A stretch of 64,000 nt of DNA from a virus. A program made the translations under genes and the position numbers. Numbering within the stretch: position 1 is the stretch's first letter; each line of letters starts with the position of its first letter. Shown piece after piece: positions 18,441 to 63,992 of this stretch. The DNA lies in IMG/VR virus record IMGVR_UViG_2871727361_000001, positions 2,590 through 66,589 of that record; one strand, given 5' to 3'. The notes beneath the pieces are model-generated. The model did no database searches. It had not been told where the DNA came from and worked only from the letters and a program-made list of their open reading frames with translations.

Positions 18441-18953
18441 ATGGCAAAGCTCACCGACAAACAAGAGCTGTTTGCCCGTGAGTATTTGTCAGACCTGAAT
18501 GCAACTCAGGCAGCCAAGCGAGCGGGATACAGCGACAAAACCGCTTACAGCATTGGACAGGAAAACCTGAAGAAACCTGAAATACAGGATCGCATCGCAG
18601 AACTGAAAGCAGAGCGTAACGAGCGCGCGCAGGTTAACGCCGATTACGTCTTGCGCCGCTTGGTAGAGATTGACCAGATGGACGTGCTCGACATCCTCAA
18701 CGCCAACGGTGAGCTGAAGCCAATCAAAGACTGGCCCAAAGTCTGGCGCACCACGCTGTCAGGTATGGACGTCACTGAGGTGGCAGGTGATGCGGCTGGG
18801 CTGCTGAAGAAAATCAAATGGCCGGACAAGGTCAAGAACCTCGAATTGCTTGGTAAGCATGTAACTGTCCAGGCATTCCGCGAGCAGGTAAAAACTGAGC
18901 ACGATGTGGTAGGTACGCTTTCCGACCTGATGGACGATCTCGCTAAGGGGTGA
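18441..18953 (+). CDS. terS: Terminase small subunit
   Basis: LTDKQELFAREYLSDLNATQAAKRAGYS, KVKNLELLGKH. Confidence 0.95.
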   Translation: MAKLTDKQELFAREYLSDLNATQAAKRAGYSDKTAYSIGQENLKKPEIQDRIAELKAERNERAQVNADYVLRRLVEIDQMDVLDILNANGELKPIKDWPKVWRTTLSGMDVTEVAGDAAGLLKKIKWPDKVKNLELLGKHVTVQAFREQVKTEHDVVGTLSDLMDDLAKG

Positions 18954-28813: not shown

Positions 28814-29124
28814 TCGCGGTTGCCTCAGCATTCTATACGCCAGAACCCTCATCAGAGGAGCTCTCCGCTTTCGGCCTGAGTGCCGATGATTACACCGAAG
28901 AAGAGCAAATCGTTGGAGTTTGGCCCGACTGCTGGGCCGCATTCGGAGTGTTTCGCGCCATGGCTACGCAGTGGCGAACCGGAGTGGGGGGGGTTACCGG
29001 GTTGGACTACAACGTACTGCCTTGGCTGATGAAAGTAAGCGGCGTGGAAGATGAGGCGGCCGTTCTTGACGATATTCGGATCATGGAGCGCGCAGCGCTG
29101 GATATGATTCATAAGGGGGCTTGA
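28807..29124 (+). CDS. -1 frameshift extension of tail chaperone (GT-like, DUF1799-like)
   Basis: -1 frame open from slippery site: [36 protein letters not shown]; TGA overlaps TMP ATG. Confidence 0.85.
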
Positions 29125-32100: not shown

Positions 32101-32282
32101 CACCAGTGATACAAACAACCGTACATGTTGATGCCAGCGGTAATTCGTCGGTGCAATCGGTGGGCGGCGGGGATGCAATGGGCAGGGCGTTGGCGGCCGA
32201 GATGCAGAAAGCCGCTATTCAGGTAGTGCAAAAACAACTGAAGGACGGTGGAATGATTTACAAATTTGTTAAAGGCCGCTAA
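29124..32282 (+). CDS. Tape measure protein (helper)
   Basis: About 1053 aa Ala/Gln-rich; QQGGQIKD, C-terminal [19 protein letters not shown]. Confidence 0.95.
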
Positions 32283-45781: not shown

Positions 45782-45895
45782 TGGTGCTGACCTGCCTTGG
45801 CGTCACTGAATAGTGCGCTCTAAATTCATCGACAACTCAACGTAGTAACTCTCCCCGCCAAAAACCCGCTTGATAGCCTGCCTCGATCAATAATA

Positions 45896-45911
45896 CTGTA
45901 TATAAATACAG
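45896..45911. promoter_or_regulatory. LexA (SOS) box
   Basis: CTGT-ATATAAAT-ACAG, near consensus; TTGATA at 45870. Confidence 0.9.
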
Positions 45912-45932
45912 TAACTAATCGGAGTAACTATC

Positions 45933-46176: not shown

Positions 46177-46494
46177 ATGGGGTTTCCGTCACCAGCGAGG
46201 GACTACGTCGAGCGCCCCTTTCGAATTGACGAACTGCCGGGCATCGACACGTCTGTGCGCGTGCATGATTTCCCTGGCGGGTTTGCGATCATCAAGCCTG
46301 TCTCTCAGGCAAAAATTGGAGATACGCTGCTGGTTAGCAACTGCGGAAGTATTGAGTTTGTCAGGCTGTCGGTGAAAGGGCTGGTAATGCCAGATGGAGA
46401 GTGCATTGCCGGCGAACAAATGGAGGGCGTCGAGGTGCTTGGGCGGGTGATTTACCAGGTGCTGGATTTTACCGATGGGGCAGGGCCTGTTTGA
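46177..46494 (+). CDS. UmuD'-like (HumD-type) protein
   Basis: Starts MGFPSPARDYVE, i.e. at the UmuD cleavage point; ends VLGRV. Confidence 0.75.
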   Translation: MGFPSPARDYVERPFRIDELPGIDTSVRVHDFPGGFAIIKPVSQAKIGDTLLVSNCGSIEFVRLSVKGLVMPDGECIAGEQMEGVEVLGRVIYQVLDFTDGAGPV

Positions 46495-46620: not shown

Positions 46621-46665
46621 CTTCTAAGCCGTAGGTCACAGGTTCGAATCCTGTAGGGCGTGCCA
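46621..46665 (+). other. att core = 3' half of tRNA-Arg(UCU) from the anticodon loop
   Basis: CTTCTAAGCCGTAGGTCACAGGTTCGAATCCTGTAGGGCGTGCCA with no 5' half upstream. Confidence 0.9.
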
Positions 46666-46831: not shown

Positions 46832-48046
46832 TTGAAACTCAATGCCCGCACAGTGGACACTTCCAAGGCCAGAGATAAAGCCTACAAGCTCTCTGACGGC
46901 GGCGGCTTGTATCTGCTGGTGAATACTAATGGCTCACGTTACTGGCGGTTAAAGTACCGCGTAGCCGGTAAAGAAAAGTTGCTGGCGCTGGGGGTATATC
47001 CTGACGTATCGCTGGCGGATGCTAGGGCAAAGCGTGACGAAGCAAAACGCACTTTGGCCGCTGGTGGTGATCCGGGCGAAGTTAAACAGACGGAAAAGCA
47101 GGCTAAGATTCTGGCGGTCAGTAACAGCTTTGAGGCACTGGCGATTGAATGGCATGAGCATAAGCGCCCCAACTGGTCACAGGGCTATGCCAGTGACATT
47201 CTGGAGTACCTGCAAAAAGATGTGTTCCCGTTTATCGGTAAACGTGCCATCGCAGAAATCAAAGCGGCAGAGATGCTGCTGGTGCTCAGAAAGATGGAGC
47301 AGCGCGGCGTTCTGGATAAGCTGAAGAAAACTCGGCAGGCTTGCAGTCAGATTTTTACCTATGCCGTTATTACTGGCAGGGCAGAGCATAATCCTGTTAC
47401 CGATCTCGCCGGCGCACTAAAAGCGCCAAAGCAAAAGCATTTCCCTCATCTTCTCACCGAACAGATTGGCGGCTTCCTTCGCGCACTTAGTGAATACACT
47501 GGCAGCAGGGTTACACAAAATGCCACCCGGCTGTTGATGCTTACTGGCACACGCACGATTGAGTTACGCGCTGCTGAATGGGCTGAATTCGATTTAGAGA
47601 AAGGCATCTGGCAGATACCTGCAGAACGGATGAAGATGCGCCGCCCTCATGTAGTGCCGCTTTCCATCCAGGCTAAATCTCTCCTTGAAGAAATTCACCA
47701 GCTGACGGGAAGAGGGCGCTATGTGTTCCCCGGGCGCAACGATGCAGGGAAGACGATGAGCGAGGCCAGTATCAATCAGGTTATCAAACGAATCGGTTAT
47801 GACGGTAAAGCTACCGGTCACGGCTTCAGACACACTATGAGCACCATTTTGCATGAGCAGGGCTATAACACTGCATGGATTGAAACGCAGTTGGCTCACG
47901 CAGATAAGAACAGTATTCGTGGCACCTACAACCACGCCCAGTATCTGGATGGACGCCGGGAGATGCTTCAGTGGTATGCCGACTACATGGAAGCGCTGGA
48001 GAACGGCGAAAACGTGGTGCATGGCACGTTCGGGAAACAGGCATGA
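46832..48046 (+). CDS. int: P4-family tyrosine integrase
   Basis: LSDGGGLYL, WRLKYR..GKEKLLALGVYP, RTIELR, HGFRH, QLAH, YNHAQY. Confidence 0.97.
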   Translation: MKLNARTVDTSKARDKAYKLSDGGGLYLLVNTNGSRYWRLKYRVAGKEKLLALGVYPDVSLADARAKRDEAKRTLAAGGDPGEVKQTEKQAKILAVSNSFEALAIEWHEHKRPNWSQGYASDILEYLQKDVFPFIGKRAIAEIKAAEMLLVLRKMEQRGVLDKLKKTRQACSQIFTYAVITGRAEHNPVTDLAGALKAPKQKHFPHLLTEQIGGFLRALSEYTGSRVTQNATRLLMLTGTRTIELRAAEWAEFDLEKGIWQIPAERMKMRRPHVVPLSIQAKSLLEEIHQLTGRGRYVFPGRNDAGKTMSEASINQVIKRIGYDGKATGHGFRHTMSTILHEQGYNTAWIETQLAHADKNSIRGTYNHAQYLDGRREMLQWYADYMEALENGENVVHGTFGKQA

Positions 48047-48062
48047 CTGTACGAATAGACAG
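48047..48062. promoter_or_regulatory. LexA-box-like site after int
   Basis: CTGT-ACGAATAG-ACAG. Confidence 0.6.
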
Positions 48063-48190
48063 TGCTAGCATACCGGAGTAGACTTTAGTAGACGAACAAA
48101 GAATAGGCTATGTCTAGGCTGATCCCCGAAAACCCGCACACCTCTGCGGGCTGGCATAGCCGCCAAAATAAGAGGGCGTGAGGTGGCGTT

Positions 48191-48511
48191 ATGTTAGATA
48201 TTGCGAAGGTTCTTAAGGAACGTGACAGTGAGTTTATAAGCCTTAGGGAGCTTATTTCCAGAATACGCTTACAGCAACCACATGTTGATGAGTCTCAGGT
48301 TGCTGATTTCCTTTACATTCAACATCAAGAAAATAACCTCGGTGAATGGGTTAAGCAAGGAATCGCTAAAACCATAGAACCAACTGATGGCGGTTATGAG
48401 GATGTAGAGCTTGAGTCGTTGCTAAAAGCTATTCACGAGGAGAAATGTGTTCCTGAGATAATAGAATCCCCGTGGCCAAAGATTGATTTTGATGATGATA
48501 TACCGTTCTGA
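48191..48511 (+). CDS. Hypothetical protein ending in SSB-tail motif
   Basis: 106 aa, C-terminus KIDFDDDIPF. Confidence 0.75.
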   Translation: MLDIAKVLKERDSEFISLRELISRIRLQQPHVDESQVADFLYIQHQENNLGEWVKQGIAKTIEPTDGGYEDVELESLLKAIHEEKCVPEIIESPWPKIDFDDDIPF

Positions 48512-48528
48512 TATCGGAGGAATTTAAT

Positions 48529-48990
48529 ATGGCAAAATCTTGGCCGGAAACTAAACAGCATTGGTCTGCTCCTCATTTTGACACTTATGGATTCAGACGT
48601 TCTGAATTAAAAGAGTTAGCGGATAAACTTGGGATCGATTTGTCTGTGCCTCTTGAAGAGGTCAAACCAGCATCTGTTAAGACTGATGAAAGAAATCCTA
48701 TGAGCGATTCCGATATTGAAATTTTGCGCATGGAGATAGACACGCTTAAGCGTCAACTTATCAAACTTGAAAATGAGCGACCAATTCTAATCAAAAAATA
48801 TCGAGAAGATGATCCCCTATTTCTTGCTATACAAATTAGAAATAAAGAATGGGCTAGATATGATCATGAGAATGATAGAGCCACGCGAGCAAACCAAGCT
48901 TCTATCAGGCATGAACTGGAAGAAATGGGTTTCACCAATCGCCAAGCAGAGTCGATAGAACTAGTTGCATGCCCCATTAAGCGGGGGTAA
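48529..48990 (+). CDS. Hypothetical protein
   Basis: 153 aa, GGAGG RBS, central coiled coil, C-terminal helical domain. Confidence 0.75.
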   Translation: MAKSWPETKQHWSAPHFDTYGFRRSELKELADKLGIDLSVPLEEVKPASVKTDERNPMSDSDIEILRMEIDTLKRQLIKLENERPILIKKYREDDPLFLAIQIRNKEWARYDHENDRATRANQASIRHELEEMGFTNRQAESIELVACPIKRG

Positions 48991-49208: not shown

Positions 49209-49406
49209 ATGTCTCAATCACTAATTCGCTTATCAGAAGTTCAGCGCCGTACAGGCTATAGCAAGGCGTGGATTTATCGTTTGCTTAAAGAAAGTCGCTT
49301 TCCTCAATCAGTAAAAATTGGTTCCCGCGCTATCGCTTTCGTTGAAAGTGAAGTTGATGAGTGGGTTAATCAGCGCATCGCCGAATCTCGTGGCGAGGTA
49401 GCTTAA
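49209..49406 (+). CDS. alpA: AlpA-family regulator/excisionase
   Basis: LIRLSEVQRRTGYSKAWIYRL...FPQSVKIGSRAIAFVESEV. Confidence 0.95.
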   Translation: MSQSLIRLSEVQRRTGYSKAWIYRLLKESRFPQSVKIGSRAIAFVESEVDEWVNQRIAESRGEVA

Positions 49407-49838: not shown

Positions 49839-50426
49839 ATGAAAACTGAAAAAAGCAGATTGAATTCTAAGGCCGCCCCTCAGCCTACCACCAGCATCAA
49901 CGCTATTTTCGCCGCTGATGAAGATAATATTTCGGTTATTAAATTCGAGGGGAAGTCGGTGCGAATCGTCAGCATTTGCGGTGAGCCGTGGTTTATCGCC
50001 AAAGATATTTGTGAGGCGCTGGAAATTTCCGATCACAAAGTCGCATTGCGTCGATTAGACCACGATGAGAAGGGGGAGTGTTTAACACCCACCCCCGGAG
50101 GCCAACAGCTTATGCGCACAGTTGGTGAATCCGGTTTCTACAAATTGATCGCCCGCAGCCGCAAGGCCACCACACCCGGCACATTCGCCCATCGATTCAC
50201 TAACTGGGTATTCCGTGAGGTCATCCCATCTATCCGCAAGACGGGCAGCTATGGTGTTCCGTTCGCTTTCCTGAACGATCACAGCAAGCGACAGGCTGCC
50301 TATGACAAGAAGGCCAGCAAGCGCGGCAAAGACCTTCAATCCTGCAAAGCCGAAAAATCACGCCTGATTGCAGAAGAGGCTGAGTTATGGCGCAAGTATC
50401 AGCCCCAATTGCCGGAGGTTCACTGA
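49839..50426 (+). CDS. Bro-N domain protein
   Basis: EPWFIAKDICEAL, GGQQLM..V.ESGFYKLI.RSRK, WVFREVIPSIRKTGSY. Confidence 0.9.
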   Translation: MKTEKSRLNSKAAPQPTTSINAIFAADEDNISVIKFEGKSVRIVSICGEPWFIAKDICEALEISDHKVALRRLDHDEKGECLTPTPGGQQLMRTVGESGFYKLIARSRKATTPGTFAHRFTNWVFREVIPSIRKTGSYGVPFAFLNDHSKRQAAYDKKASKRGKDLQSCKAEKSRLIAEEAELWRKYQPQLPEVH

Positions 50427-50871
50427 TGAACGCCGCCCAAGTTAAAGGCTTCCCGCTGGCTGGCATGACGTCCGGGCACTATATCTACCCGCCTGATATG
50501 GCTGCCGGGAACCTCACAAAACCAGACATTGAGAGCAGTCCCGGAGCGGCCGGCTTGTTGTCAAAAGTTGATATTCAAAACCTGAGAAAACCTGAATTTG
50601 ATGCCGAGTCAGCAAGTAGTTTCGTGACCAGTACGCGAGGGCTGGCCACTGGCAACCGTTTCGATACCGCAGCGCCCGGAGTTTCGTTAGCAGTACGCGA
50701 GGGCGAGGCGCTTACCCTCAATAAGGTGGTGAGCTATGCACAGGCAAAACTCTTAAAGAGTTACGGTTTAAAGAAGGGCGGCAATACTCAGGCGGGACTG
50801 GTTGTGTTTCTGGAGTCCGTAAAAAAGGGCGGGATTTCAAATCCGCCCCTTTGCAGTATGCAGGACGACTA

Positions 50872-51057
50872 TCAGCCCTTTGGTTCGATGCCTAAACGCT
50901 CAAGCTCTTTGCGTCCTAGCGTCTTGAGCCAGTTAGCCAAACTCACACCGGACTCAGCAGCCACAGATTCAAATTGTTCTTTAAGTTCCGGGGTTATCCG
51001 CATTCTGAATTGTGGGGATTGCCCTTCACCTTTTGGACTCTTATCGCGCTTTATCAT
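50872..51057 (-). CDS. RHH DNA-binding protein
   Basis: PQFRMRITPELKEQFE..A..SGVSLANWL; operators AGGTGGTCACCT at 51062 and 51097. Confidence 0.75.
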   Translation of the reverse strand: MIKRDKSPKGEGQSPQFRMRITPELKEQFESVAAESGVSLANWLKTLGRKELERLGIEPKG

Positions 51058-51205
51058 TGACAGGTGGTCACCTATTAAATTAATCTCACCGTTATTAGGT
51101 GGTCACCTTATCATTGTGCTACCTATAAAAACAATGCCCCGCAGTGGTGGAACACTAACAGGGCATCTAACTACCAGCGTTATTATCAGTAACGAGGAAG
51201 CTGTT

Positions 51206-51439
51206 TTGAATCATACCACACACCCGCAAGGGCGGAACGCTCACGACCTGAATTCAGAGGCACAGCAGCCGTCATTTATCTGGCTGATTGCTGCCGTTCC
51301 GCGTAATTGCCAGACAATCACCGCAAAGATTCACCATATCGAAGCACAATCCGAGCGCGAAGCCCGTCAGTCGCTTGCTCGTGATCACGTCACATTCTTT
51401 GCCGGACGCATACGCAAAGGAGGTGCTTATGCTCACTAA
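51206..51439 (+). CDS. Icd-like host cell-division inhibitor
   Basis: FIWLIAAV...IEAQSEREARQSL....FFAGRIR; TTG start after GAGG. Confidence 0.75.
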   Translation: MNHTTHPQGRNAHDLNSEAQQPSFIWLIAAVPRNCQTITAKIHHIEAQSEREARQSLARDHVTFFAGRIRKGGAYAH

Positions 51440-52073
51440 TACCGCGCCAGCAATCAGCCAGGCCATGCCAGCCGTAGAGTACCGGGGCCAGCGTGTCGTG
51501 ACGTTTGCCATGATTGACGAGGCCCACCAGCGCCCTGATGGTTCAGCGCGTCAGGCTTTTAACCGTCATATTGAGCATTTCATCTCCGGCACTGACTTTG
51601 TAAAGGTTTCAGCCGATGAATACCGCGCCCTTCTTTCCAGTCAGTACGCCATAGACACGCGCAAAAAGTGCGCGTCTATAAAAGACACGCGCAAAAAATC
51701 AGCAGAAAAAATCACCGAGGACGTGACGCTGATATTTGAGTCTGGCTATTTGATGGTTGTAAAACCGTTCAAAGACTCGCTTTCGTGGCAGGTACAGCGC
51801 GAGCTGGTCAACAGCTATTTCCGCCCGTTCGCCGCCTTTGCTGACATTCGCCCGATCCCCATTCCTACGCTGGCAGAGCTGGACGCCATGCCGTTACAGC
51901 AGGCGCAGAGCGCCATCGCTGCCGCAGAGCGTAAATCCCACTGGCGACACGGAAAGCACGGCAGCGCAGAGATGAACCAGCGCAGGCGCGAGCTGAAACT
52001 AATCAGGCCCGCCATTGCATACCTGACCGCCATTACACAGATGACTATCCCCGGACTGGAGAACGTGAAGTGA
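51429..52073 (+). CDS. ORF6N-domain protein
   Basis: EYRGQRVVTFAMIDEAHQRP.G.AR..FNRH, LIFESGYLMVVKPFKD.LSWQVQRELVNSYF. Confidence 0.88.
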   Translation: MLTNTAPAISQAMPAVEYRGQRVVTFAMIDEAHQRPDGSARQAFNRHIEHFISGTDFVKVSADEYRALLSSQYAIDTRKKCASIKDTRKKSAEKITEDVTLIFESGYLMVVKPFKDSLSWQVQRELVNSYFRPFAAFADIRPIPIPTLAELDAMPLQQAQSAIAAAERKSHWRHGKHGSAEMNQRRRELKLIRPAIAYLTAITQMTIPGLENVK

Positions 52074-53408: not shown

Positions 53409-53759
53409 ATGATGACAAAAAACTTTGAATTAAACGCCCTGGCTAGCCAGTTCGCCGCAGCCGTGTATGACAGCGTAAGGCAGCAGAACGGGGGCGACTG
53501 GTTTCCGATGACCATTGGCGGCGCTCGCATTGAGGTGGCCGTTACCGATGGGGCAAAGGGTATTCGTGAGCTGGTGGACTCGTTCGCCCTGACCCCGCTC
53601 AAAGAGGGGTATCAGCAGTGGGAAAGAATGGGGATCGTGCTGATGAAGAAATGCCTCACAGGGCACGGACTGACTGAGTTCGGCGGGGAGATCTGGAAAA
53701 GTATGATTGCAGATATGGCGGAGTCACTGGCAGAAGGGGGGATCGATGAAAAGCATTGA
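53409..53759 (+). CDS. Hypothetical satellite protein upstream of primase
   Basis: 116 aa, overlaps primase start. Confidence 0.7.
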   Translation: MMTKNFELNALASQFAAAVYDSVRQQNGGDWFPMTIGGARIEVAVTDGAKGIRELVDSFALTPLKEGYQQWERMGIVLMKKCLTGHGLTEFGGEIWKSMIADMAESLAEGGIDEKH

Positions 53760-56511
53760 GCTGATCCGCGAAGTCACCGCCGCCGCCGCAGGGCGCTGGC
53801 CTCATGTGCTGGCCGGCCTGTCTATTGACGTTCCAGACTCACCGCGCCGCCATGCCGCGTGCCCCGCTTGCGGGGGATCTGACCGGTTCCGGTTCGATGA
53901 TAACGGGCGGGGTTCACACATCTGCAACCAGTGCGGGGCTGGCGACGGGCTGGACTTAATAGCCAAGGTGAACCAGTGCGACGCTACGGAGGCGGCAAAA
54001 CTCGCCGCTGACGTGATGGGTATTGATTACCGGGCAACACAATCACCCGAAGAGGCCAGCCAGAGAAAGCAGCAGGCCGAATCCATGCGCCACCGGCGCG
54101 AGCAGGAGCGCCAGAAACAGGCCGCAGACGAAGCCGAGCAGCGCCGGAATACCTTTGCCCGCCTGTTCAGTGAGCGCCTGCAAAGCAGCGCACAGGGGGA
54201 ATCGGTTTACCTGTCCGGCAAAGGGCTGGCCGGGTTCACCTTCCCGATCCTGCCCGATGGGTCATTGCTCCTGACGCTGGTGGATGATTCAGGCGAGGTT
54301 GTGGCGGCGCAGAACATTACTCCACGCGGAGAAAAGCGACTTCTGACCGGTTCGGCAAAGCGCGGGGCATATCACGCCGTCAACGCAACGGCAGCGCCGG
54401 AGAGCGTCTTAATTGCCGAAGGGCTGGCGACGGCCTTGTCCATTCACCTGATGCGACCTGACGCGCTGACCGTGGCGGCGGTTGACGCGGGCAACCTGCT
54501 GCCCGTGGCTGAGGTTATGCGCCGCAGATACCCGGACGCGCAGATCGTCATTGCCGGGGATAACGATTATCACGACGACGAACAACCGAATACCGGGAAG
54601 TTGGCAGCAGAGAAAGCCGCGCAGCGCGTTTCCGGTTCGGTATCAATCCCGCCGGGAGAGCAGAAATTCGACTGGGACGACTACCGCCAGCAGTTCGGTA
54701 CAGAAGCCGCCAGAGCGGCGCTCAGGGATTCGATTTATCAGCCGGAGGGCGTGCAGGTGAAACCACAGTTACAGGCGATTGATGGCGGTAAGGTTACGGT
54801 AAGGGATGAAGCATCCGACCCGCTGAAGCCGCGCATTGAGAGCCGCGCCGATGGGGTTTTCTGGATAACGCCAAAGGTTGATAAGGATTCAGGCGAGATA
54901 ATCAATAACGAGAGCTGGTTATGCTCACCGCTGGAGGTTATCGGTACCGGAAGGGACGATAAAGACCAGTATCTGATTGTGTCCTGGCTGGCGTTCGGCG
55001 CTGATTCACAGACGACGGCAGCGATCCCGCTGGCAGATATTGGCGAGCGTGAGGGCTGGAAAAGGTTGAAAGCTGGTGGCGTGAACGTCACCACGAAAAA
55101 CGCGCTACGGGCAACGCTGGCCGACTGGCTGCAAAGAAGTGGAAGCCGCGAGCTGTGGCGCGTGGCCGACGCGACGGGATGGCAGTCTGGCGCATATATC
55201 ATGCCCGACGGCGACGTTATCGGGCAGCCTGAGCGCCCCGTGCTGTTCAACGGCAGAAGTTCAGCCGCTGCCGGCTACAGGGTCAAAGGCTCAGCAGAGA
55301 GCTGGCGTGATTCAGTTGCCCGGCTGTCGTATGGCAATTATTCGATGATGACCGCCGTCGCCGCCGCGCTGGCCGCACCATTGATCGGACTGGCAGAGCG
55401 AGACGGGTTCGGCATCCACTTTTACGAACAGTCGAGCGCGGGGAAGACCACCACGCAGAACGTGGCCAGCAGCCTCTACGGCAATCCCGACGCACTTCGC
55501 CTGACGTGGTACGGGACGGCGCTGGGGCTGATAAACGAGGCCGCCGCCCACAACGACGGCCTGATGCCGCTGGATGAAGTCGGGCAGGGTTCAGATCCGG
55601 TCAGCGTTTCACAATCCGCATATGCGCTTTTTAACGGCGTTGGCAAGCTACAGGGCGCGAAAGAGGGAGGGAACCGGGACTTAAAACGCTGGCGAACTAT
55701 CGCTATCAGTACCGGTGAAATGGACATGGAAACATTCATCGCCACTTCAGGCAGGCAGACCAAAGCGGGCCAGCTTGTCCGGCTCCTGAACATCCCCATG
55801 ACTAAGGCGGTCAATTTCCACGGGTACAAATCGGGTAAAGACCACGCTGACGCGCTGAAATTCGCCTGGCAGAAAAACCACGGGGCAGCCGGCAGGGCAT
55901 GGGTGAAGTTACTGGCGGGCGACAAAGACAAAGCGGCCAGAACTGTTCGTGAGTGTGAGGAACGCTGGCGCAGCCTGATTCCCGCAGACTATGGGGAGCA
56001 GGTACACCGCGTCGGCGGCAGGTTCGCCATTCTGGAGGCCGCTTTGCTTCTCAGCAGCGCAATCACTGGCTGGGATGCTCAGGCGTGCCGTGACGCTATC
56101 CAGCACGCCTATAACGCATGGCTGAAAGAGTTCGGCACAGGGAACAAAGAGCACCAGCAGATCATTGAGCAGACCGAGGCTTTTCTTAATGCCTACGGCC
56201 TGAGCCGGTTCGCCCCGTTTCCCTACGATCCGGCCAGCCTGCCAATACAAAACCTTGCCGGTTATCGGCAGCGAGGGGCGCACGACGATTCACCGATGAC
56301 GTTTTTTACCCTGCCCGCGACGTTTGAGAAGGAGATCGCCAGAGGATTCAACAAGCAACAGGTTGCCCGCGTGCTCAAAGAAGCGGGGATGCTTAATCCG
56401 CCAGCAGACGGCAGAGGCTACCAGCGAAAAACGCCAAGGATCGACGGCAGGCAAATAACCGTCTACGTCCTGCAATTTTTGCCGGAGGAAGAGGAAGGCC
56501 AGCCAGATTAA
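53746..56511 (+). CDS. Primase-helicase (Zn ribbon + TOPRIM + DUF927)
   Basis: CPACGGSDRFRFDD..C..CGAGDG, AEGLATA, IAGDND, SSAGKTT, LDEVGQ. Confidence 0.93.
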   Translation: MKSIELIREVTAAAAGRWPHVLAGLSIDVPDSPRRHAACPACGGSDRFRFDDNGRGSHICNQCGAGDGLDLIAKVNQCDATEAAKLAADVMGIDYRATQSPEEASQRKQQAESMRHRREQERQKQAADEAEQRRNTFARLFSERLQSSAQGESVYLSGKGLAGFTFPILPDGSLLLTLVDDSGEVVAAQNITPRGEKRLLTGSAKRGAYHAVNATAAPESVLIAEGLATALSIHLMRPDALTVAAVDAGNLLPVAEVMRRRYPDAQIVIAGDNDYHDDEQPNTGKLAAEKAAQRVSGSVSIPPGEQKFDWDDYRQQFGTEAARAALRDSIYQPEGVQVKPQLQAIDGGKVTVRDEASDPLKPRIESRADGVFWITPKVDKDSGEIINNESWLCSPLEVIGTGRDDKDQYLIVSWLAFGADSQTTAAIPLADIGEREGWKRLKAGGVNVTTKNALRATLADWLQRSGSRELWRVADATGWQSGAYIMPDGDVIGQPERPVLFNGRSSAAAGYRVKGSAESWRDSVARLSYGNYSMMTAVAAALAAPLIGLAERDGFGIHFYEQSSAGKTTTQNVASSLYGNPDALRLTWYGTALGLINEAAAHNDGLMPLDEVGQGSDPVSVSQSAYALFNGVGKLQGAKEGGNRDLKRWRTIAISTGEMDMETFIATSGRQTKAGQLVRLLNIPMTKAVNFHGYKSGKDHADALKFAWQKNHGAAGRAWVKLLAGDKDKAARTVRECEERWRSLIPADYGEQVHRVGGRFAILEAALLLSSAITGWDAQACRDAIQHAYNAWLKEFGTGNKEHQQIIEQTEAFLNAYGLSRFAPFPYDPASLPIQNLAGYRQRGAHDDSPMTFFTLPATFEKEIARGFNKQQVARVLKEAGMLNPPADGRGYQRKTPRIDGRQITVYVLQFLPEEEEGQPD

Positions 56512-56872: not shown

Positions 56873-57316
56873 ATGAGCGCACAGGTATCTGCATACGGGC
56901 GGCTGGTGGCCGATCCACAGATCCGCACAACAACAACCGGGAAGCATATGGCAATGGCACGGTTATCCGTGGCGCTTCCCTGCCGTACCGCACAGAACGG
57001 CGAGGCTACGTTCTGGCTGGGCGTGGTGGCTTTCGGCAATCAGGCCGCCGCGCTGGCAAAGCACGTTAAGGGCGACATGATAAGCATTGCCGGCAACATG
57101 CAGCTTAACCAGTGGGCGGCTCAGGATGGAGCGCAGAAGGAGCAGCCGCAGGTTATCGCTGACAGCGTGATAAGCGCCAGGACGACGCGACCGGGAGGAA
57201 GGAAGAAAGCCAGCTATCAGGAAAGCCCACCGGCAACAGGCGCAGCGCCGGGATGGGACACGCACAACCCGCCGGATGGGTTCGATCAGCGGCCACCTTT
57301 CGACGATGATTTTTAA
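56873..57316 (+). CDS. ssb: Single-stranded DNA-binding protein
   Basis: GRLVADP, W..VVAFG..A, KGD.I...G.M; acidic tail PPFDDDF. Confidence 0.88.
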   Translation: MSAQVSAYGRLVADPQIRTTTTGKHMAMARLSVALPCRTAQNGEATFWLGVVAFGNQAAALAKHVKGDMISIAGNMQLNQWAAQDGAQKEQPQVIADSVISARTTRPGGRKKASYQESPPATGAAPGWDTHNPPDGFDQRPPFDDDF

Positions 57317-57408
57317 GACGTGCGGCGGGCTAAGCACCCGGCACAACCGATGCCGCCCGCCATTTTCAACACCAGCAGGCCACCAGCACCACGACAGAGG
57401 ATAAGGCA

Positions 57409-57885
57409 ATGCAAACCCTGAGCATTAAGCGCAAACCAAAGGGGCTGTATTCAGCGCCAGAGAAGCCCAAAGAAACGACCGCCTCAGCACCAGGGCAAGC
57501 GGCAGCCAAACCAGCTAAAGGCGCACCAGCGAAAGCACAGACAGCGAAATCAAAGAAAACGGCGAAAGCCCGTATCAGGAAGATAAAGCGCCTGTCTGAG
57601 CACTGGCCTGAGCTGTTCAACAGGGAAGCGCCAAAGCCGCTCAAGGTGGGTATCCTGCATGATGCCATTGCCGATATTGAGGCCAGAGGGATTCAGTTCG
57701 GCACAGGCTCATTCAAGGCCGCGTTAGCCGGGTATACGCAGAGCGCCAGCTACCTGATGGCCTTATCATCTGGCGGGCAGCGTTATGACCTGACAGGCCA
57801 GCCGGCGGGTGAAGTGACAACCGAACAGCAGCAGAAAGCCACTGAGGCGCTGAATAAGCTCAAGGGGGCCGCTGATGGTGAATGA
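57409..57885 (+). CDS. ProQ/FinO-domain protein
   Basis: WPELF...PKPLKVGI, AL..YT.S..YL......RYDL.G.P.GEVT. Confidence 0.88.
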   Translation: MQTLSIKRKPKGLYSAPEKPKETTASAPGQAAAKPAKGAPAKAQTAKSKKTAKARIRKIKRLSEHWPELFNREAPKPLKVGILHDAIADIEARGIQFGTGSFKAALAGYTQSASYLMALSSGGQRYDLTGQPAGEVTTEQQQKATEALNKLKGAADGE

Positions 57886-58144
57886 CAAAATGGCGCAGGA
57901 ACTGGAATCAAAAGGGCTGTATCGCAGAGCCGCCTCACGCTGGCTGGAAGTGTTCGACAAATGCGAGACCGAAGCCGGCAGAGAGTGGCTCAAAAACCGG
58001 CGTAATCAGTGCCTGGCAAAGCGAGTGCGCCCCGCCGTGCTGGTCGATACCTTTGGTGATGTCACCAGAGCAGCAGGCGACACACAGCGTAGGATGGGAT
58101 TAGCCAGACCGGGCGGCGAGGCGTTCAGACTCAAAGCCAAATAA
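57875..58144 (+). CDS. PerC-like protein
   Basis: AQELESKGLYRRAASRWL..RRNQC. Confidence 0.8.
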   Translation: MVNDKMAQELESKGLYRRAASRWLEVFDKCETEAGREWLKNRRNQCLAKRVRPAVLVDTFGDVTRAAGDTQRRMGLARPGGEAFRLKAK

Positions 58145-58771: not shown

Positions 58772-58872
58772 GCATAGTAACCTCGTTTCGGCGAGGTTTT
58801 TTATAAACAAAATATTCGATCAAAACGATCAAATTAACGTTTCATAAATCGGCATGAATCACTCCACTATTT

Positions 58873-58909
58873 CAGTAATTGCAATTATAATTACTGTATA
58901 AAATAACAG
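58873..58909. promoter_or_regulatory. Promoter with LexA box and IR
   Basis: TATAAT at 58886, IR CAGTAATT/AATTACTG, CTGT-ATAAAATA-ACAG at 58894-58909 abutting the RBS. Confidence 0.8.
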
Positions 58910-58918
58910 GAGGTGTCC

Positions 58919-59095
58919 ATGATCCAGCAGCCAACCGTCAAACCCGTACTGATGCGGGTTGAACAAATCGAAGCCCTAAGAAAAATTCAAGAACAGGAAC
59001 GCGCTAAATCACCATTAGGCGTGGCTCCAACTATTCACGTTATCGCTCGCGGCCTGATGGATAAAGCATTTGCCCAACTGGATCAGGAGGCGTGA
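58919..59095 (+). CDS. Small DNA-binding-like protein
   Basis: KPVLMRVEQIEALRKIQ...IHVIARGLMDKA; GGAGG RBS. Confidence 0.65.
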   Translation: MIQQPTVKPVLMRVEQIEALRKIQEQERAKSPLGVAPTIHVIARGLMDKAFAQLDQEA

Positions 59096-59421
59096 TGGAA
59101 CGGCTACAGCGCCTGGCTGAAACTATCGCAGAAACATACATCCGTGACCGAATCCGGGAGCATGGCAACGCACAGTTCACCCATAACGGTAAAACCGGTG
59201 AGACGCGCCGCGAATTGCTGGCGTCGGGGCTGGTTGATAACTGCGTTTATGCTGCCCGCAGCAGCGGCAAGGCTGATTATGAACGTGAGGCATACACCAT
59301 GCTGATGGAGATGATTTCTCTGAGCGGCAGGGAGTACCAGGTAACAAACCACGGGCTGAACGTGATCGAAACTATGCACCGCGTCGCGCTGGCTAAAAGC
59401 TCGCCTCGCGTCAGTCATTAA
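59092..59421 (+). CDS. Hypothetical protein
   Basis: 109 aa between regulator and TMP. Confidence 0.65.
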   Translation: MMERLQRLAETIAETYIRDRIREHGNAQFTHNGKTGETRRELLASGLVDNCVYAARSSGKADYEREAYTMLMEMISLSGREYQVTNHGLNVIETMHRVALAKSSPRVSH

Positions 59422-59430
59422 GGGGGATGA

Positions 59431-62400
59431 ATGGATGGCACCAAATTAGGGGGCTTCTATTACGAAGTTGATCTAGAGCTTGAGAGGGCGCTTGAAAAGG
59501 CGGCAAAGCTCGATAACACACTTGATGGCATGGGTGAATCCGCTGTTAAAGCGGGCAAGCAGATCAATGTCGCAGAGCGCTCAATGTCATCGCTTTCCCG
59601 CGTGGCCACTGCGATTACCGCTGCCCTGTCAGTTCAGCAAGTCGCCGCCTATGCCGATGCCTGGGCAAACGTTAACAACAAACTGGCTAACGCTGTCAGG
59701 CCGGGAGAGCAGTTGGCTTCTGTTACTGAGCGCGTTTTCAATATTACACAGCAAACCCGCTCAAGCCTCGACGCCACTGCGTCACTGTATGCCCGATTAG
59801 AGCGAGCGACCCGGCAGTATGGAACCAGCGCAGACGATCTCGCCAAGCTCACCACCATCATTAACCAGGGATTTGTGGTATCGGGCGCTACCGCACAGGA
59901 AGCTGAAAACGCCATTATCCAGCTCTCGCAAGGTTTAGCCTCTGGCGCACTGCGTGGTGAAGAATTTAACTCAGTGAACGAGCAGGGGAACCGCCTTATC
60001 GTAGCGCTTGCTGATTCAATGGGCGTCACCATAGGCCAGATGCGTAATATGGCGGCACAGGGCAAGCTGACCACTGATGTTGTGGTTAATGGCCTGTTAT
60101 CCCAAGGATCTAGCATCGGACAGGAATTCGCCAGGACTACAGCAACAATCGGCCAATCCCTTGAGGTGGCTGGAAATAACATCACACGATTCGTTGGTTC
60201 GTCTGCGACGGTGAAGACAGCAGTGGCTGTATTTAACAGCGCAGTGATCACCCTTTCTGAAAACTTAGAACTTGTATCAACAGCCATTCTGGCTGTTAGT
60301 GCGGTAATGGGGTCCAGATATGTTGGTGCGCTGGCAGCAGCAACAGCTGGGCAAATAGCCAATGCCGCCGCTGCTTATCGTGCGGCAGCAGCTCAGGGGG
60401 CAATGTCAGCAGCCGCAGCCGGGGCGAGGAGTATGCTTGCCTTAATTGGTGGCCCCGCAGGCGCGGCCACACTGGCAGCGGCAGCAATATTCTATTTCTA
60501 CCAGAAGGCTCAGCAGGCAAAACAGGAAAGCATCGACTTTGCCGATAAGCTAGATGCTGTCATCTCCAAGATGAAGGAGATGAACCAGACTCAGATTTCC
60601 GCAGAGATAGCGAAAGCGCAGCAATCAATCATCGACCAGAAAGACGCAATCAGCGAGCTGCGAGGCGAACTGGCAGCGCTGGAGCAAAAGAAAACATTTA
60701 TCGAGCAGGCCGCCCGCATCCGCGGTGCTGCCGCTGTTTCCGCAGATTATGAGCAGGTACAGCGTGATATAGCTATTCAGGCCGGCAGGGTAGACGCAGC
60801 AGAAAACAAACTTAGCCAGACAGTGAGTAAGACGGGCTTATTGCGCGCTCAGTTGAATGGCAATCTTGCCCAAGGCATTGACCTGCTTAAGCGTGATGGG
60901 GATCAGGCTGGTTTAGCAAGCGGATTGATGAACCAATTTGGAAATGCCATCAATTTTGCTTCCAGAGCCAAAGAAACATTCAACTCCACTAGCCTGATTG
61001 TCAGCAGGCCTAAAGACATTCAGGACTATCTCGACAACCAGCAGGAACAAATTGACCTGCAAAGTGAGTTTAACGAGAAGAAACGTGCCCAGCTCAAGGC
61101 TGAAATGGAGATTCGCAATCTTGCCAAAAAGGACGGCAGCCCCGACTCCGACCAGATAGAACGTGATGTTCAGCTGGCACGCGCAAGGGCCGGTGTAGCG
61201 TTCGACCAGCAGAAAGCAGAAGAAAATCGCCGGAAAGCCCAGCAGCAAAGCGAGCAGCAAGATAAGCGGTCAGCCTCTTCGGCAGAATCTGTATCGCAGA
61301 AGCTGGAAAGCCTGCGTCAGCAATCCGAATTATCAGCAGATTCTACACATGAAATGAGCCGGTCTCAGGCCGTTCTCCAGGCTCAGTTGTCACTGGGCAA
61401 AGGGGCCACTCAGGAGCAAATTGCGCTGGCCGGTAAGTATCGTGGAGAGATATGGGATACGTCCGCAGCAATCCGCGCTCAGGTTGCTGCTATGAAGTTA
61501 ATTCCCGAGCAGGCAGAGAACACCCGCTATAAGCAGGATGTCGCTGACCTCAAAACGGCGCTGGAGCAAAAGACCATCACTCAGCAGCAACATGACGCAG
61601 TCGCCGAGCAGATGGAGCAGCAACACCAGGTGAACTTAGCCAAAATCATGGCGACGCAGAACACTGTGGTTAGCCCGCTTCAGGAAGCTCAAGGGGCTAT
61701 AGATCCGGTTCAGGCTCTGGCCAATGAAAACGCGAAAAAGTTAGAACTGATAAAGCAGTTTGAAACAGAAAAGGGACAAATTACCCTCAATGGCCTGGCA
61801 TTAATGAATGCTGCCAACACTCAGTACGAACAGCAGCGCATAGCGGCTCAGTGGGAGGTTTACCGCAACCAGAGCGCCGCTAATAGCCTTCTGGCTGACG
61901 CGGTTGACTCTCTTCAGGGTGGCGCGACTAATGCCATTACCGGCCTTCTGAATGGCACTCAGAGACTCAGTGAGGCATTCGCCAACATCGGCACCACAAT
62001 CCTGAATAGTGTGGTCAGTGGTCTGGTAGAGATGGGCCTGCAGTATGTGAAAAACATGCTCATGGGACAGACAGCAGCATCAGCAGCGCTTGGGGCAACA
62101 GCAACGCAGGCAACAGCCGCAGCAGGGATGTGGGGGCCGGCAGCAGTGAGCGCATCGATCGCCACCATGGGAACCGCTTCAACCGTAGGCACAACAGCCT
62201 ATTCAACAGCGTTGATGGCTTCTAAAGGTTTAGCTGTGGCCGGTGCGCGTGAGCACGGCGGCCCAGTCAACGCCAACAGCATGTATCGCGTAGGCGAGGG
62301 CGGCAAGCCGGAGATCTTTAAAGCCAGTAACGGCAGCCAGTACATGATTCCCGGTGATAACGGCAAGGTTATCAGTAACCGTGATTTGTCCGGCGCTGGT

Positions 62401-62571
62401 GGTGGGAACGTAATTCATCAAGAGGTCAATTTCCATATAACCACAACCGGAGGAATTGACGCCGCTACTCAAAAACAGCTGGCCGGCATGATGAAGCAAG
62501 TCGCACTCTTCCAAATGAAAGAGGAAAGCACTCGCGGAGGCGGGATGCTCCAGCCACGTCAGAAAAAATAA
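59431..62571 (+). CDS. Tape measure protein (satellite-encoded)
   Basis: 1046 aa; AIIQLSQGLASGALRGEEFNSVNEQG domain; C-terminal GAREHGGPV..YRVGEGGKPE. Confidence 0.9.
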   Translation: MDGTKLGGFYYEVDLELERALEKAAKLDNTLDGMGESAVKAGKQINVAERSMSSLSRVATAITAALSVQQVAAYADAWANVNNKLANAVRPGEQLASVTERVFNITQQTRSSLDATASLYARLERATRQYGTSADDLAKLTTIINQGFVVSGATAQEAENAIIQLSQGLASGALRGEEFNSVNEQGNRLIVALADSMGVTIGQMRNMAAQGKLTTDVVVNGLLSQGSSIGQEFARTTATIGQSLEVAGNNITRFVGSSATVKTAVAVFNSAVITLSENLELVSTAILAVSAVMGSRYVGALAAATAGQIANAAAAYRAAAAQGAMSAAAAGARSMLALIGGPAGAATLAAAAIFYFYQKAQQAKQESIDFADKLDAVISKMKEMNQTQISAEIAKAQQSIIDQKDAISELRGELAALEQKKTFIEQAARIRGAAAVSADYEQVQRDIAIQAGRVDAAENKLSQTVSKTGLLRAQLNGNLAQGIDLLKRDGDQAGLASGLMNQFGNAINFASRAKETFNSTSLIVSRPKDIQDYLDNQQEQIDLQSEFNEKKRAQLKAEMEIRNLAKKDGSPDSDQIERDVQLARARAGVAFDQQKAEENRRKAQQQSEQQDKRSASSAESVSQKLESLRQQSELSADSTHEMSRSQAVLQAQLSLGKGATQEQIALAGKYRGEIWDTSAAIRAQVAAMKLIPEQAENTRYKQDVADLKTALEQKTITQQQHDAVAEQMEQQHQVNLAKIMATQNTVVSPLQEAQGAIDPVQALANENAKKLELIKQFETEKGQITLNGLALMNAANTQYEQQRIAAQWEVYRNQSAANSLLADAVDSLQGGATNAITGLLNGTQRLSEAFANIGTTILNSVVSGLVEMGLQYVKNMLMGQTAASAALGATATQATAAAGMWGPAAVSASIATMGTASTVGTTAYSTALMASKGLAVAGAREHGGPVNANSMYRVGEGGKPEIFKASNGSQYMIPGDNGKVISNRDLSGAGGGNVIHQEVNFHITTTGGIDAATQKQLAGMMKQVALFQMKEESTRGGGMLQPRQKK

Positions 62572-62651
62572 CTCAGCATCGCAGGGACGCGATCATGTTG
62601 AGTTTGGTCAAGGTAAAACGGGTTTGAGAAATAGCGAAAGGTGGCAGACAG

Positions 62652-63092
62652 ATGCCTGATAGCAGGAAAGAACAGGGAAAGCACCCTACCCGCTGGACTA
62701 AGGGGAAGTCTGGAAATCCCAACGGCAGACCCGGCAAGGGCGCGGAGATCCGCCGAAAGCTGATGGAGTTAACGCCTGATGCCATGAAAGCCATAGAGGA
62801 CGGCATCAAGAGCGGAGACACGGCTTGTCTCAAGATATGGGCTGACCGTTGCGACCCGGTGAGCAAGGCAACATTGCCCACGGTTGAGTTCCTAGCCGAC
62901 ACAACAGACCTGACCCGGTTCAGCCTTTCGGTACTCGCCGCCATATCAAAGGGCGAGGTATCACCGGATATTGGCTCGCATATCATCAATGCCGCCGCCA
63001 GCGCCGCCAGAGTCGCAGAGATTGACCAGATGAAGCGCGAGCTTGAGGAACTGCAAAAACAGGTTGAGGAAATGCTTAACGAACGTCCGTAA
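62652..63092 (+). CDS. DUF5681-like protein, possible TerS analogue
   Basis: TRWTKGKSGNPNGRPGK motif, C-terminal coiled coil. Confidence 0.6.
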   Translation: MPDSRKEQGKHPTRWTKGKSGNPNGRPGKGAEIRRKLMELTPDAMKAIEDGIKSGDTACLKIWADRCDPVSKATLPTVEFLADTTDLTRFSLSVLAAISKGEVSPDIGSHIINAAASAARVAEIDQMKRELEELQKQVEEMLNERP

Positions 63093-63258
63093 GACTCTTG
63101 CCGAAATGAAAAGGCAGATTGAGAGCACCAGACCCGTTGAGGACGCCCCCGTCATTTTCCCCGGAGATGATGAACCAAGTTCAGGCAAATTTATCCGACT
63201 GCGAGTGATTGACGCCTCAGCAGGTAAAAAATATGACGACACTCAACACCATCCGTAA
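63043..63258 (+). CDS. Small hypothetical protein (start uncertain)
   Basis: ORF track; RKTLAEMKRQIESTRP motif. Confidence 0.4.
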   Translation: MRNCKNRLRKCLTNVRKTLAEMKRQIESTRPVEDAPVIFPGDDEPSSGKFIRLRVIDASAGKKYDDTQHHP

Positions 63259-63343
63259 AATTAAAGCCAGATTTGGCGAGGCATGGCATGAGGACTACCC
63301 AGTTGGAGATCCGCGCCGTATTAAACTGGAATATGACCAATGA
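63233..63343 (+). CDS. Small hypothetical protein (36 aa)
   Basis: MTTLNTIRKIKARFG..., ATGA overlap downstream. Confidence 0.4.
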   Translation: MTTLNTIRKIKARFGEAWHEDYPVGDPRRIKLEYDQ

Positions 63344-63564
63344 GCATGAAAAGCCAGATTGCCGCACTAGAGAAGGTCATACATGCTATCAGGCCAAAGC
63401 CAGCCAGTGATAACCCACCACCAGAACGCAGCCAGTTTATAAAAGCAGACGGTTTTATTGATTCATCAGCCTGGCTAGCCGCAGTCGCTGAGTGGAGTAT
63501 TAAGACGTTCGGCAAGCCATTAAAAGAGATCGCCGAGCAAATAGCCGAAGAGGAAGGGTTTTAG
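63340..63564 (+). CDS. Small hypothetical protein
   Basis: MSMKSQIAALEKVIHAIRP... Confidence 0.6.
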   Translation: MSMKSQIAALEKVIHAIRPKPASDNPPPERSQFIKADGFIDSSAWLAAVAEWSIKTFGKPLKEIAEQIAEEEGF

Positions 63565-63568
63565 CCTG

Positions 63569-63829
63569 ATGACCACCAGACAGAAGCTGATAGCGATTAG
63601 AAAGATGATAGACGGCAGCCAGCCAGAAGATAAATTCGATTCGCTGGTATTATCTGCCTTGATTGACGAGTTATCCGGGACAGCACCAGAGGGGAACGCT
63701 GACGAGGTGGCGAAGAAGCTACACGCCAGAACAGGCTACACATTCCCGCATAATGCTGAGATGAAAGAGCTATTCGATTCTGTCAAAGATGGCGCAGCGC
63801 ATATCAGGAGGCTAAGAGATGACAGTTAG
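63569..63829 (+). CDS. Small hypothetical protein
   Basis: MTTRQKLIAIRKMIDGSQP... Confidence 0.6.
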   Translation: MTTRQKLIAIRKMIDGSQPEDKFDSLVLSALIDELSGTAPEGNADEVAKKLHARTGYTFPHNAEMKELFDSVKDGAAHIRRLRDDS

Positions 63830-63992
63830 CAGACAGATAACGGAGTTAAAAAAGATTGTCTCAGGCATGAGACCAGATCCTGAGCACAGCCCAACAGAAA
63901 TCTATCTGATACCCATGAGCCGGGACGAAAGCGGCAGCATTAACGAGGGCGAGGCTGTTTTATTGTGGAGGAAAGGGGCCGGGGGCAGGTAA
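63819..63992 (+). CDS. Small hypothetical protein (57 aa)
   Basis: MTVSRQITELKKIVSGMRP..., AGGAGG RBS. Confidence 0.55.
   Translation: MTVSRQITELKKIVSGMRPDPEHSPTEIYLIPMSRDESGSINEGEAVLLWRKGAGGR

Follow-up and report, generated by a model that had tools for sequence, protein, structure and literature searches.

Why would a phage satellite that encodes no capsid, portal, terminase or tail tube carry an intact gene for a tail length tape measure protein (TMP)? This question is raised by a 64,000-nucleotide stretch of viral DNA (IMG/VR record IMGVR_UViG_2871727361_000001, positions 2,590 to 66,589; hereafter the window, whose numbering is used below), in which a lambdoid prophage extending to 46.6 kb is followed in tandem by a satellite-like island of 19.3 kb (approximately 46621-65900) at a tRNA-Arg(UCU) site. 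A first-pass annotation, made from the letters of the window, had read the island as a satellite with an SOS-controlled operon encoding its own full-length TMP. The anatomy of the island and comparative data give good support to its classification as a phage satellite of the type of phage-inducible chromosomal islands (PICIs), and on balance the best explanation of its unusual cargo is that a TMP released by the SOS response is built into the tails of a helper phage.

The identity of the protein is clear from its family scores: 193.8 bits against TMP_3 (PF20155; cut-off 41) and 1221 bits against phrog_1107. Over 94% of its length it aligns collinearly, at 57-58% identity, with its counterparts in phage ES18 and Erwinia phage Midgardsormr38; it is about 79 aa shorter than its closest phage relatives. 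When the TMPs of Klebsiella siphoviruses are compared alongside those of ES18 (gp21) and Midgardsormr38, all are 44-59% identical to it, collinear over 83-99%, and members of the same Pfam and PHROG families. In these phages, the gene lies between the tail assembly chaperone (TAC) genes and the gpM/L/K/I/J tail-tip genes, whereas in the island it stands alone. The two small genes and the intact TMP reading frame are located where the first-pass annotation had placed them; the first small gene most likely encodes 58 rather than 60 aa. Its statement that capsid, tube and chaperone genes are missing was extended from the window to the whole island: each island open reading frame (ORF) was scanned against Pfam and/or PHROGs, and besides the TMP no capsid, portal, terminase, tube, chaperone, tip or lysis gene was found. 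The sequence to the right of the window, taken from the host genome (3.79 Mb; contig label L002), shows that the island ends after about 1.9 kb, with neither a tail operon nor a second prophage beyond it; a GmrSD-like gene pair, an insertion sequence fragment and a fimbrial operon are found there instead. What remains is a classical PICI-type scaffold plus one full-length TMP.

Furthermore, the cassette formed by the 58-aa gene, the 108-aa gene and the TMP recurs widely. Inspection of 45 further loci brought the total, with this island, to 46, spread over Erwinia, Pantoea, Chimaeribacter, Lonsdalea, Cronobacter and Providencia genomes and 37 IMG/VR loci. The latter are mostly proviruses of 17-25 kb, in all of which a long ORF follows right after the 108-aa gene, and the ORFs that were tested are TMPs. 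Across the whole set, the 108-aa gene stands directly upstream of the long TMP ORF without exception (46/46), and the TMP ORF is intact in 44 loci, being cut by a contig end in one and split into three ORFs in another, from E. amylovora. The 44 intact proteins fall into 24 clusters at 95% identity and range from 856 to 1162 aa. A TMP scan using one genome per species returned ten loci, four of which are the same island with the same gene order (in an Erwinia metagenome-assembled genome, Pantoea septica, Pantoea sp. and Chimaeribacter) and six of which are ordinary prophages where tail-tip genes follow the TMP. The order int-AlpA-antirepressor-primase-PerC-58aa-108aa-TMP is also found in Lonsdalea, E. 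amylovora, Cronobacter and Providencia. The family is sporadic, with one occurrence in 400 sampled genomes of the order, and a search of complete E. coli genomes at megablast level found neither this cassette nor the major IMG/VR variant. Between islands, the TMP evolves with a dN/dS of 0.13-0.16 at dS 0.3-0.66, an unsaturated range of divergence (0.156 for this TMP against that of an Erwinia island). The intact ORFs and the low dN/dS together indicate that the TMP is a maintained, functional gene of the island family, neither unique to this locus nor generally decaying, and not a relic.

Two sub-lineages differ around the TMP. In the E. amylovora islands L019 and L020 (10338-13544), the gene is divided into ORFs of 399, 233 and 345 aa in two independent assemblies, although neither the promoter, with its perfect LexA box, nor the 108-aa gene is damaged. 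In one large sub-lineage, the first plus-strand gene after the TMP, beyond a 145-aa reverse-strand ORF without family match, matches phrog_5 (annotated 'tail completion or Neck1 protein'; E 1.9e-16 for L053:13703-14074, from an IMG/VR relative), so that some relatives carry a second tail or neck gene.

While the position of the TMP in the island is constant, its sequence is not. In a tree of the common C-terminal half, the island TMPs do not group together as a single clade. Over its N-terminal 300 aa, the present TMP shares about 72% identity with TMPs of ES18-type phages and prophages, as against about 21% with TMPs from the Pantoea, Cronobacter and Lonsdalea islands, whose proteins resemble phage TMPs other than the ES18 type. 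For example, the Cronobacter protein shares 55% full-length identity with the equally long TMP of Klebsiella phage ST101-KPC2phi6.1. In addition, islands L007 and L028 have TMPs at least 95% identical to each other next to different promoter/58-aa modules. The phylogeny and the N-terminal mosaicism indicate that the slot is constant and its content exchanged with siphoviruses; the mosaic relationship of the alleles with siphovirus TMPs suggests repeated swapping, a pattern that would be expected if the TMP must fit the tails of locally available helpers. Phage ST101-KPC2phi6.1 itself encodes a homologue of the 108-aa protein (35% identity; L027:6989-7321) two genes upstream of its 856-aa TMP, in a moron-rich gap between the chaperone genes and the TMP. 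The 108-aa gene is therefore linked to the TMP in phages too, and the island cassette was probably captured as a unit from a phage of this kind.

The constant companion of the TMP, the 108-aa gene, is under purifying selection of its own (dN/dS 0.09-0.29) and encodes a rare protein: a collection of 5.8 billion proteins contains only about 35 clusters of it, and one of 1.8 billion contains 23 representatives. Its AF2 model is of high quality (pLDDT 91). Foldseek against the PDB returned nothing at E 0.001 or better and matched no solved chaperone, and the VIA wide search gave small helical domains with a best Z of 6.1, which is uninformative. Profile searches of the 108-aa and 146-aa families against PDB sequences likewise found nothing. 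We propose that the 108-aa protein is an accessory factor or chaperone specific to the TMP. The 58-aa protein is 49-98% conserved across the island family and may be an autoregulator, possibly a DNA-binding one; the lead is a weak ribbon-helix-helix match in a protein-atlas search, where RHH_1 came only at rank 24 with a score of 0.91.

The gene downstream of the TMP, for 146 aa, had been described as DUF5681/TerS-like. Its kinship to DUF5681 is borne out through its homologues, its own score of 25.9 bits lying under the cut-off of 27.5. The TerS label was dropped, being unsupported by Pfam, PHROGs, profile or fold searches, which returned neither TerS nor any other PDB match; the model, of moderate quality (pLDDT 70.6), consists of helices and a coiled coil. 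This gene contains a 16-nt exact identity (63017-63032) to the terS gene of the neighbouring prophage (18665-18680), and both copies encode EIDQM. Pac sites often lie inside terS. The identity is at chance level (blastn E 0.8; pairwise BLASTP E 0.012).

How is this operon switched on? A terminator whose hairpin is kept in relatives closes the upstream unit, making the TMP operon a separate transcription unit. Its promoter follows an order conserved across genera: the terminator, the elements TTCGATCAAAACGATCAAAT and TTTCATAAATCGGCA, TATAAT and ACTGTAT. Both elements are near-invariant in 5-10 diverged islands from different genera, each is unique in the window, and the conserved promoter region had no match among phage records. 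No sigma-70 -35 hexamer was found, and the poor -35 region suggests an activator, for which PerC, encoded just upstream, AlpA or a helper factor are candidates and TTCGATCAAAACGATCAAAT and TTTCATAAATCGGCA are candidate binding sites. The LexA box that the first-pass annotation saw abutting the ribosome-binding site (RBS) is real: the 20-mer TACTGTATAAAATAACAGGA (58892-58911) has a perfect core, CTGT-N8-ACAG (58894-58909), beginning 2 nt after the TATAAT, lies over +1, and overlaps the AGGAGG with its right end. The host genome encodes LexA and RecA, each gene with its own upstream box. Against the E. coli consensus, the operon box scores 15/20 with an all-A/T spacer, compared with 16/20 for the recA box and 13/20 for the lexA box, and it ranks 10th among the 31 CTGT-N8-ACAG sites of the 3.79-Mb genome. 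Three such sites occur in the window against 0.81 expected, all of them intergenic. Five distinct lineages have the canonical spacing (CTG-N10-CAG), between them with two different spacer sequences: this island, Lonsdalea, E. amylovora and two IMG/VR loci. The identical 20-mer is present in the L028 island and in those of E. amylovora and Lonsdalea, the last of which keeps it despite a diverged upstream sequence, and the Providencia island has a near-canonical CTGT-N8-ACAT. From the quality of this motif, we consider it probable that LexA represses the TMP operon in this island.

Two further motifs lie nearby. One is in the island, in the region 48047-48990, ahead of two genes without assigned function (106 and 153 aa). 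The other, TACTGTATATAAATACAGTA (45894-45913, core from 45896), is near-perfect (19/20, the best in the genome) and lies upstream of a UmuD-like gene (phrog_3469, 46177-46494) at the right end of the prophage, before the common attachment (att) repeat. The motifs at 45896 and 48047 both fit an SOS-linked life style.

These parts would combine into the following scheme. DNA damage would lead to LexA cleavage and free the promoter that the box overlaps, while the tail genes of a helper siphovirus are concurrently expressed, whether from an induced prophage or from a phage of the ES18/Erwinia type that infects the cell. The satellite TMP, probably aided by the 108-aa protein, would then replace or compete with the helper TMP within tails made by the helper. 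The resulting satellite particles would have a chimeric tail, and a factor that acts on the helper TMP would no longer be required for injection or would no longer stop it; the assembly of helper tails might also be impaired. Tail poisoning and a change of host range are both conceivable. By analogy with the PICI-like elements (PLEs) of Vibrio cholerae discussed below, assembly into chimeric tails is the most likely function of the TMP, and we favour it, with reserve.

Several observations weigh against this explanation. The island's attR copy is degenerate, and the split TMP of E. amylovora represents decay in one lineage. No packaging determinant of the terS, rpp or ppi kind was matched by Pfam or PHROGs in any island ORF; the island lacks a recognisable TAC homologue, unlike PLEs, and the fold of the 108-aa protein matched no chaperone. 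In five island-bearing genomes, including this host, no second TMP of the island type was found, and a search of sequencing runs returned no run with more than 12% of the sampled words of the locus. The adjoining prophage, for its part, encodes a 1053-aa TMP (29121-32282) that is, as had been noted, of a different sequence type (lambda-type, TMP_2 plus Tape_meas_lam_C, and unrelated to the island TMP by BLASTP). Identity between its tail-tip proteins and the ES18-type ones is only about 30%, and the prophage has no DNA in common with the island beyond chance, nor any common cos or pac sequence. On these grounds, it was rejected as a matched helper. PLE TMPs are only about 20% identical to the TMP of ICP1 (PMC12987554), so dissimilarity of the TMPs does not by itself exclude this prophage. 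The earlier suggestion that the true helper may be another phage fits these data, since the island TMP is of the ES18/Erwinia-siphovirus type and no such phage is resident. Finally, most relatives of the island carry CTG-N9-CAG (CTGTAT...ATCAG), one base short of the canonical box, so the left half, which is conserved, may be there for the start of transcription or for a regulator other than LexA. The claim of an SOS-controlled operon therefore stands in part: box quality, spacing and the presence of host LexA make such control plausible for this element, and the trait does not extend to the family, in which five lineages are canonical and most are shorter.

This last point leads to a rival account that is quite possible, if short of probable: the box would be not a working LexA operator at all but a family-wide operator or leader variant for another factor, such as the 58-aa protein, and the operon would be switched by AlpA, PerC or a helper activator instead of SOS. 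The element with its halves one base closer is equally conserved in most relatives, operator types and alleles of the adjoining 58-aa gene vary together, and the poor -35 and conserved upstream motifs suggest an activator. On the other hand, the motif in this island has perfect half-sites at the right spacing and an all-A/T spacer and beats the box of the host's own lexA gene; the canonical spacing persists with two spacers in five lineages, with a near-canonical ACAT form in Providencia; and two more such motifs occupy nearby regulatory positions. LexA control thus keeps our preference for this island.

The role of the TMP itself has also to be weighed. We think it unlikely that the protein serves interference only, as a dominant-negative decoy that poisons the tail assembly of phages in the cell for defence or competition and is not part of island particles. 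Interference with helper assembly is common among satellites, Rta (PMC12987554) and Tai (PMC11364771) are known to act on the assembly of tails, and a TMP without an accompanying chaperone, packaging or capsid-remodelling gene that is also some 79 aa shorter than its nearest phage relatives would suit a decoy. A decoy, however, needs neither full-length collinearity (94%) nor uniform purifying selection along some 1000 codons, and PLEs build their TMP into their own virions as a structural component (PMC12987554). Still less likely, in our judgement, is a role outside the virion, with a TMP-like protein in the lysogen's envelope that blocks siphovirus DNA entry at the inner membrane (superinfection exclusion) or serves some other export or injection function. 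In its favour, gp15 blocks the TMP-dependent step; a repressed SOS- or late-type promoter is nevertheless unsuited to constitutive exclusion, and collinearity and allele exchange with phage TMPs point to the virion. Least credible is a decaying remnant, in which illegitimate recombination would have joined part of a siphovirus tail operon to a PICI to give a mosaic, with a TMP that has no current function. The solitary TMP without tube, chaperone and tip genes, the degenerate attR and the three ORFs in E. amylovora would all fit such a history, but conservation has already largely ruled it out: 44 of 46 TMP ORFs are intact in at least six genera at the dN/dS given above, and promoter, both small genes and gene order are strictly conserved. 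Incorporation into helper tails hence remains our best explanation.

The features of the island are collected in the table below. The att repeats settle its bounds. The tRNA-Arg(UCU) gene is located some 2.6 kb to the left of the window (about -2690 to -2604), and besides the exact repeat between prophage and island, a third, degenerate copy is found at window-equivalent 65872-65900 (approximately L002:7276-7304), about 1.9 kb right of the window. Repeats of the tRNA 3' end at three places mean that prophage and island integrated in tandem at one tRNA gene. The 11 bp of post-tRNA sequence AATAAATTCAA are common to the attL side of the phage and the attR side of the island, an arrangement suggestive of mimicry of the original downstream flank by the phage attP. 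The scaffold is predicted to provide excision, helper derepression and replication; its integrase is 96% identical to that of the syntenic Erwinia island L004, and its primase/replicase is about 70% identical across syntenic islands. Among the small ORFs downstream of the TMP, none of which has a family match in Pfam or PHROGs, the one for 74 aa is 39-44% conserved in relatives; two leftward genes without assigned function follow and complete the right part of the island. PADLOC found no defence families among ten island proteins. Just beyond the island attR, about 2.3-5.6 kb right of the window end (L002:7729-10960), are two adjoining GmrSD-family genes (GmrSD_N plus DUF7834; GmrSD_N plus GmrSD_C) and then a DDE transposase fragment. 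The att repeats place the pair outside the island, ruling it out as island cargo, and it appears to be a defence locus beside an integration hotspot rather than part of the satellite.

Table. Coordinates (window numbering) and strand of the annotated features of the island, from its left attachment site to the end of the window.
Feature	Coordinates	Strand	Details
attR of the lambdoid prophage and attL of the island	46621..46665	+	Exact 45-bp repeat of the tRNA-Arg(UCU) 3' end
P4-type tyrosine integrase	46832..48046	+	Arm-DNA-bind_3, Phage_int_M and Phage_integrase domains
Second island CTGT-N8-ACAG motif	48047..48062	+	14/20; right after the integrase stop, upstream of the 106-aa and 153-aa genes
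AlpA regulator/excisionase homologue	49209..49406	+	PF05930, E 1.8e-19
Antirepressor-like genes	49839..52073	+	Bro-N; 350-aa protein with repressor-like C-terminus; ORF6N
Primase/replicase	53707..56511	+	Zn-ribbon primase (PF08273), Toprim_3, DUF927
SSB, ProQ/FinO-like protein, PerC-family activator	56873..58144	+	PF00436, PF04352, PF06069
Intrinsic (rho-independent) terminator	58779..58798	+	Closes the upstream unit; hairpin kept in relatives
Conserved upstream elements	58815..58855	+	TTCGATCAAAACGATCAAAT (58815-58834, two GATC/Dam sites); TTTCATAAATCGGCA (58840-58854)
TATAAT -10, LexA box, AGGAGG RBS	58886..58913	+	-10 at 58886-58891; RBS at 58908-58913
58-aa protein	58919..59095	+	Likeliest start ATG 58919 (58 aa, not 60)
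108-aa protein	59095..59421	+	phrog_19131; start ATG 59095, overlapping the stop codon of the 58-aa gene
Tail length tape measure protein	59431..62571	+	1046 aa, intact; PF20155, phrog_1107
146-aa DUF5681-like protein	62652..63092	+	C-terminal coiled coil; homologues carry PF18932
Small ORFs continuing the operon	63043..63992	+	71, 74, 86 and 57 aa

Beyond the single locus, we put forward a wider proposal, more tentatively and as less than probable. Erwinia, Pantoea, Cronobacter, Lonsdalea, Chimaeribacter, Providencia and other Enterobacterales may harbour a sizeable family of classical-PICI-type satellites with a TMP as their sole virion gene, carried in a cassette that can be exchanged and that includes a 108-aa partner dedicated to it; recombination would repeatedly re-match the cassette to local siphoviruses and let satellite particles inject by a route that the helper TMP cannot use or that recipients block for it, and one sub-lineage would be wired to SOS. 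Satellite finders would tend to miss such a family: the PICI and cf-PICI (capsid-forming PICI) models of SatelliteFinder treat tail profiles as forbidden components (PMC10085698), which can hide satellites that bear a TMP and may explain why the island family is undescribed. Manipulation of tails by satellites has so far been demonstrated only for the Vibrio PLEs and their lytic myovirus. If the reading holds, the same strategy would operate among Enterobacterales, plant-associated as well as clinical, in PICI-type islands of the ordinary kind that exploit temperate siphoviruses, in hosts such as Erwinia, Pantoea and Cronobacter where genetics is easy. It would also be a minimal system of one TMP with one or two small partners, in which one can ask how a foreign TMP is selected into a helper tail, how its timing is coupled to SOS, and what a TMP swap gains: escape from TMP-targeted exclusion or defence, different injection requirements, or interference with the helper.

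The closest known parallel is the PLE. The first-pass annotation had pointed to a Vibrio PLE with its own TMP, and this precedent is real, chimeric tails included. PLE11, PLE1 and PLE4 have genes for a TMP, a baseplate hub protein and a tail assembly chaperone (Mathur, Boyd et al., Nature 2026, PMC12987554). As demonstrated by transmission electron microscopy (TEM), western blot, mass spectrometry and transduction, the PLE TMP replaces that of ICP1 in PLE virions, whose tails are 10 nm shorter, and in PLE11 the swap evades the element's own TMP-targeting defence protein Rta (PMC12987554). Like a PLE, the present island is an integrative satellite of about 18-19 kb with few virion genes and its own full-length TMP in a conserved operon, and its TMP alleles fall into distinct sequence groups. 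The two differ in scaffold, which is unrelated here (P4-type integrase, AlpA, DUF927 primase, PerC), in the type of TMP (siphovirus, for ES18/lambda-like tails, against myovirus in PLEs) and in the partners, which are the 58-aa and 108-aa proteins, with no match to the TAC or BhuB families, a comparison made at family level and not by direct homology tests against PLE proteins. The putative helper of the island would moreover be temperate and SOS-linked, whereas that of PLEs is obligately lytic. Putative tmp genes have also been reported in PLE-like elements and cf-PICIs (PMC12987554), and mycobacterial EPIP satellites carry a TMP (PMC12822802). The concept of a satellite-encoded TMP is thus already known from PLEs, and the novelty of the island is lower than first assumed because satellite TMPs were published in 2025-26.

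Compared with other satellites, the island most resembles the classical Gram-negative PICIs (EcCICFT073 type and those of E. cloacae), with an integrase at a tRNA att site, AlpA, antirepressors, pri-rep, PerC/ProQ, a size of 10-20 kb and no capsid, portal, terminase, tail tube or lysis genes; PerC, ProQ and BRO antirepressors are known PICI cargo in E. cloacae (PMC13612085). It departs from them in carrying a tail gene, which SatelliteFinder forbids, and in having no recognisable terS, rpp or ppi; in the literature that we searched, no classical PICI was reported to carry a TMP. The genes that define cf-PICIs were found in no island ORF, and with P4-like satellites the island shares only int, AlpA and a P4-alpha-type primase zinc ribbon (PF08273, Toprim), as well as Ash-like proteins in relatives, and lacks Psu, Delta and Sid by Pfam and PHROGs. 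Operon I of the Staphylococcus aureus pathogenicity islands (SaPIs), whose LexA control had also been correctly stated, is LexA-controlled according to PMC5052747, which cites Ubeda et al. 2007 for it. It offers the likeness of a satellite morphogenesis operon under the host SOS repressor that fires together with SOS-induced helper prophages; it is Gram-positive and encodes TerS, capsid-size and interference proteins and no tail protein, and its LexA control is shown, whereas that of the island is predicted and confined to a sub-lineage. Other non-Vibrio satellites with a predicted TMP also encode a capsid, portal, terminase or adaptor, none of which the island does. What is new here is accordingly the combination of a PICI scaffold with a minimal, siphovirus-directed TMP cassette that dispenses with chaperone and hub and that, in one sub-lineage, bears an SOS box.

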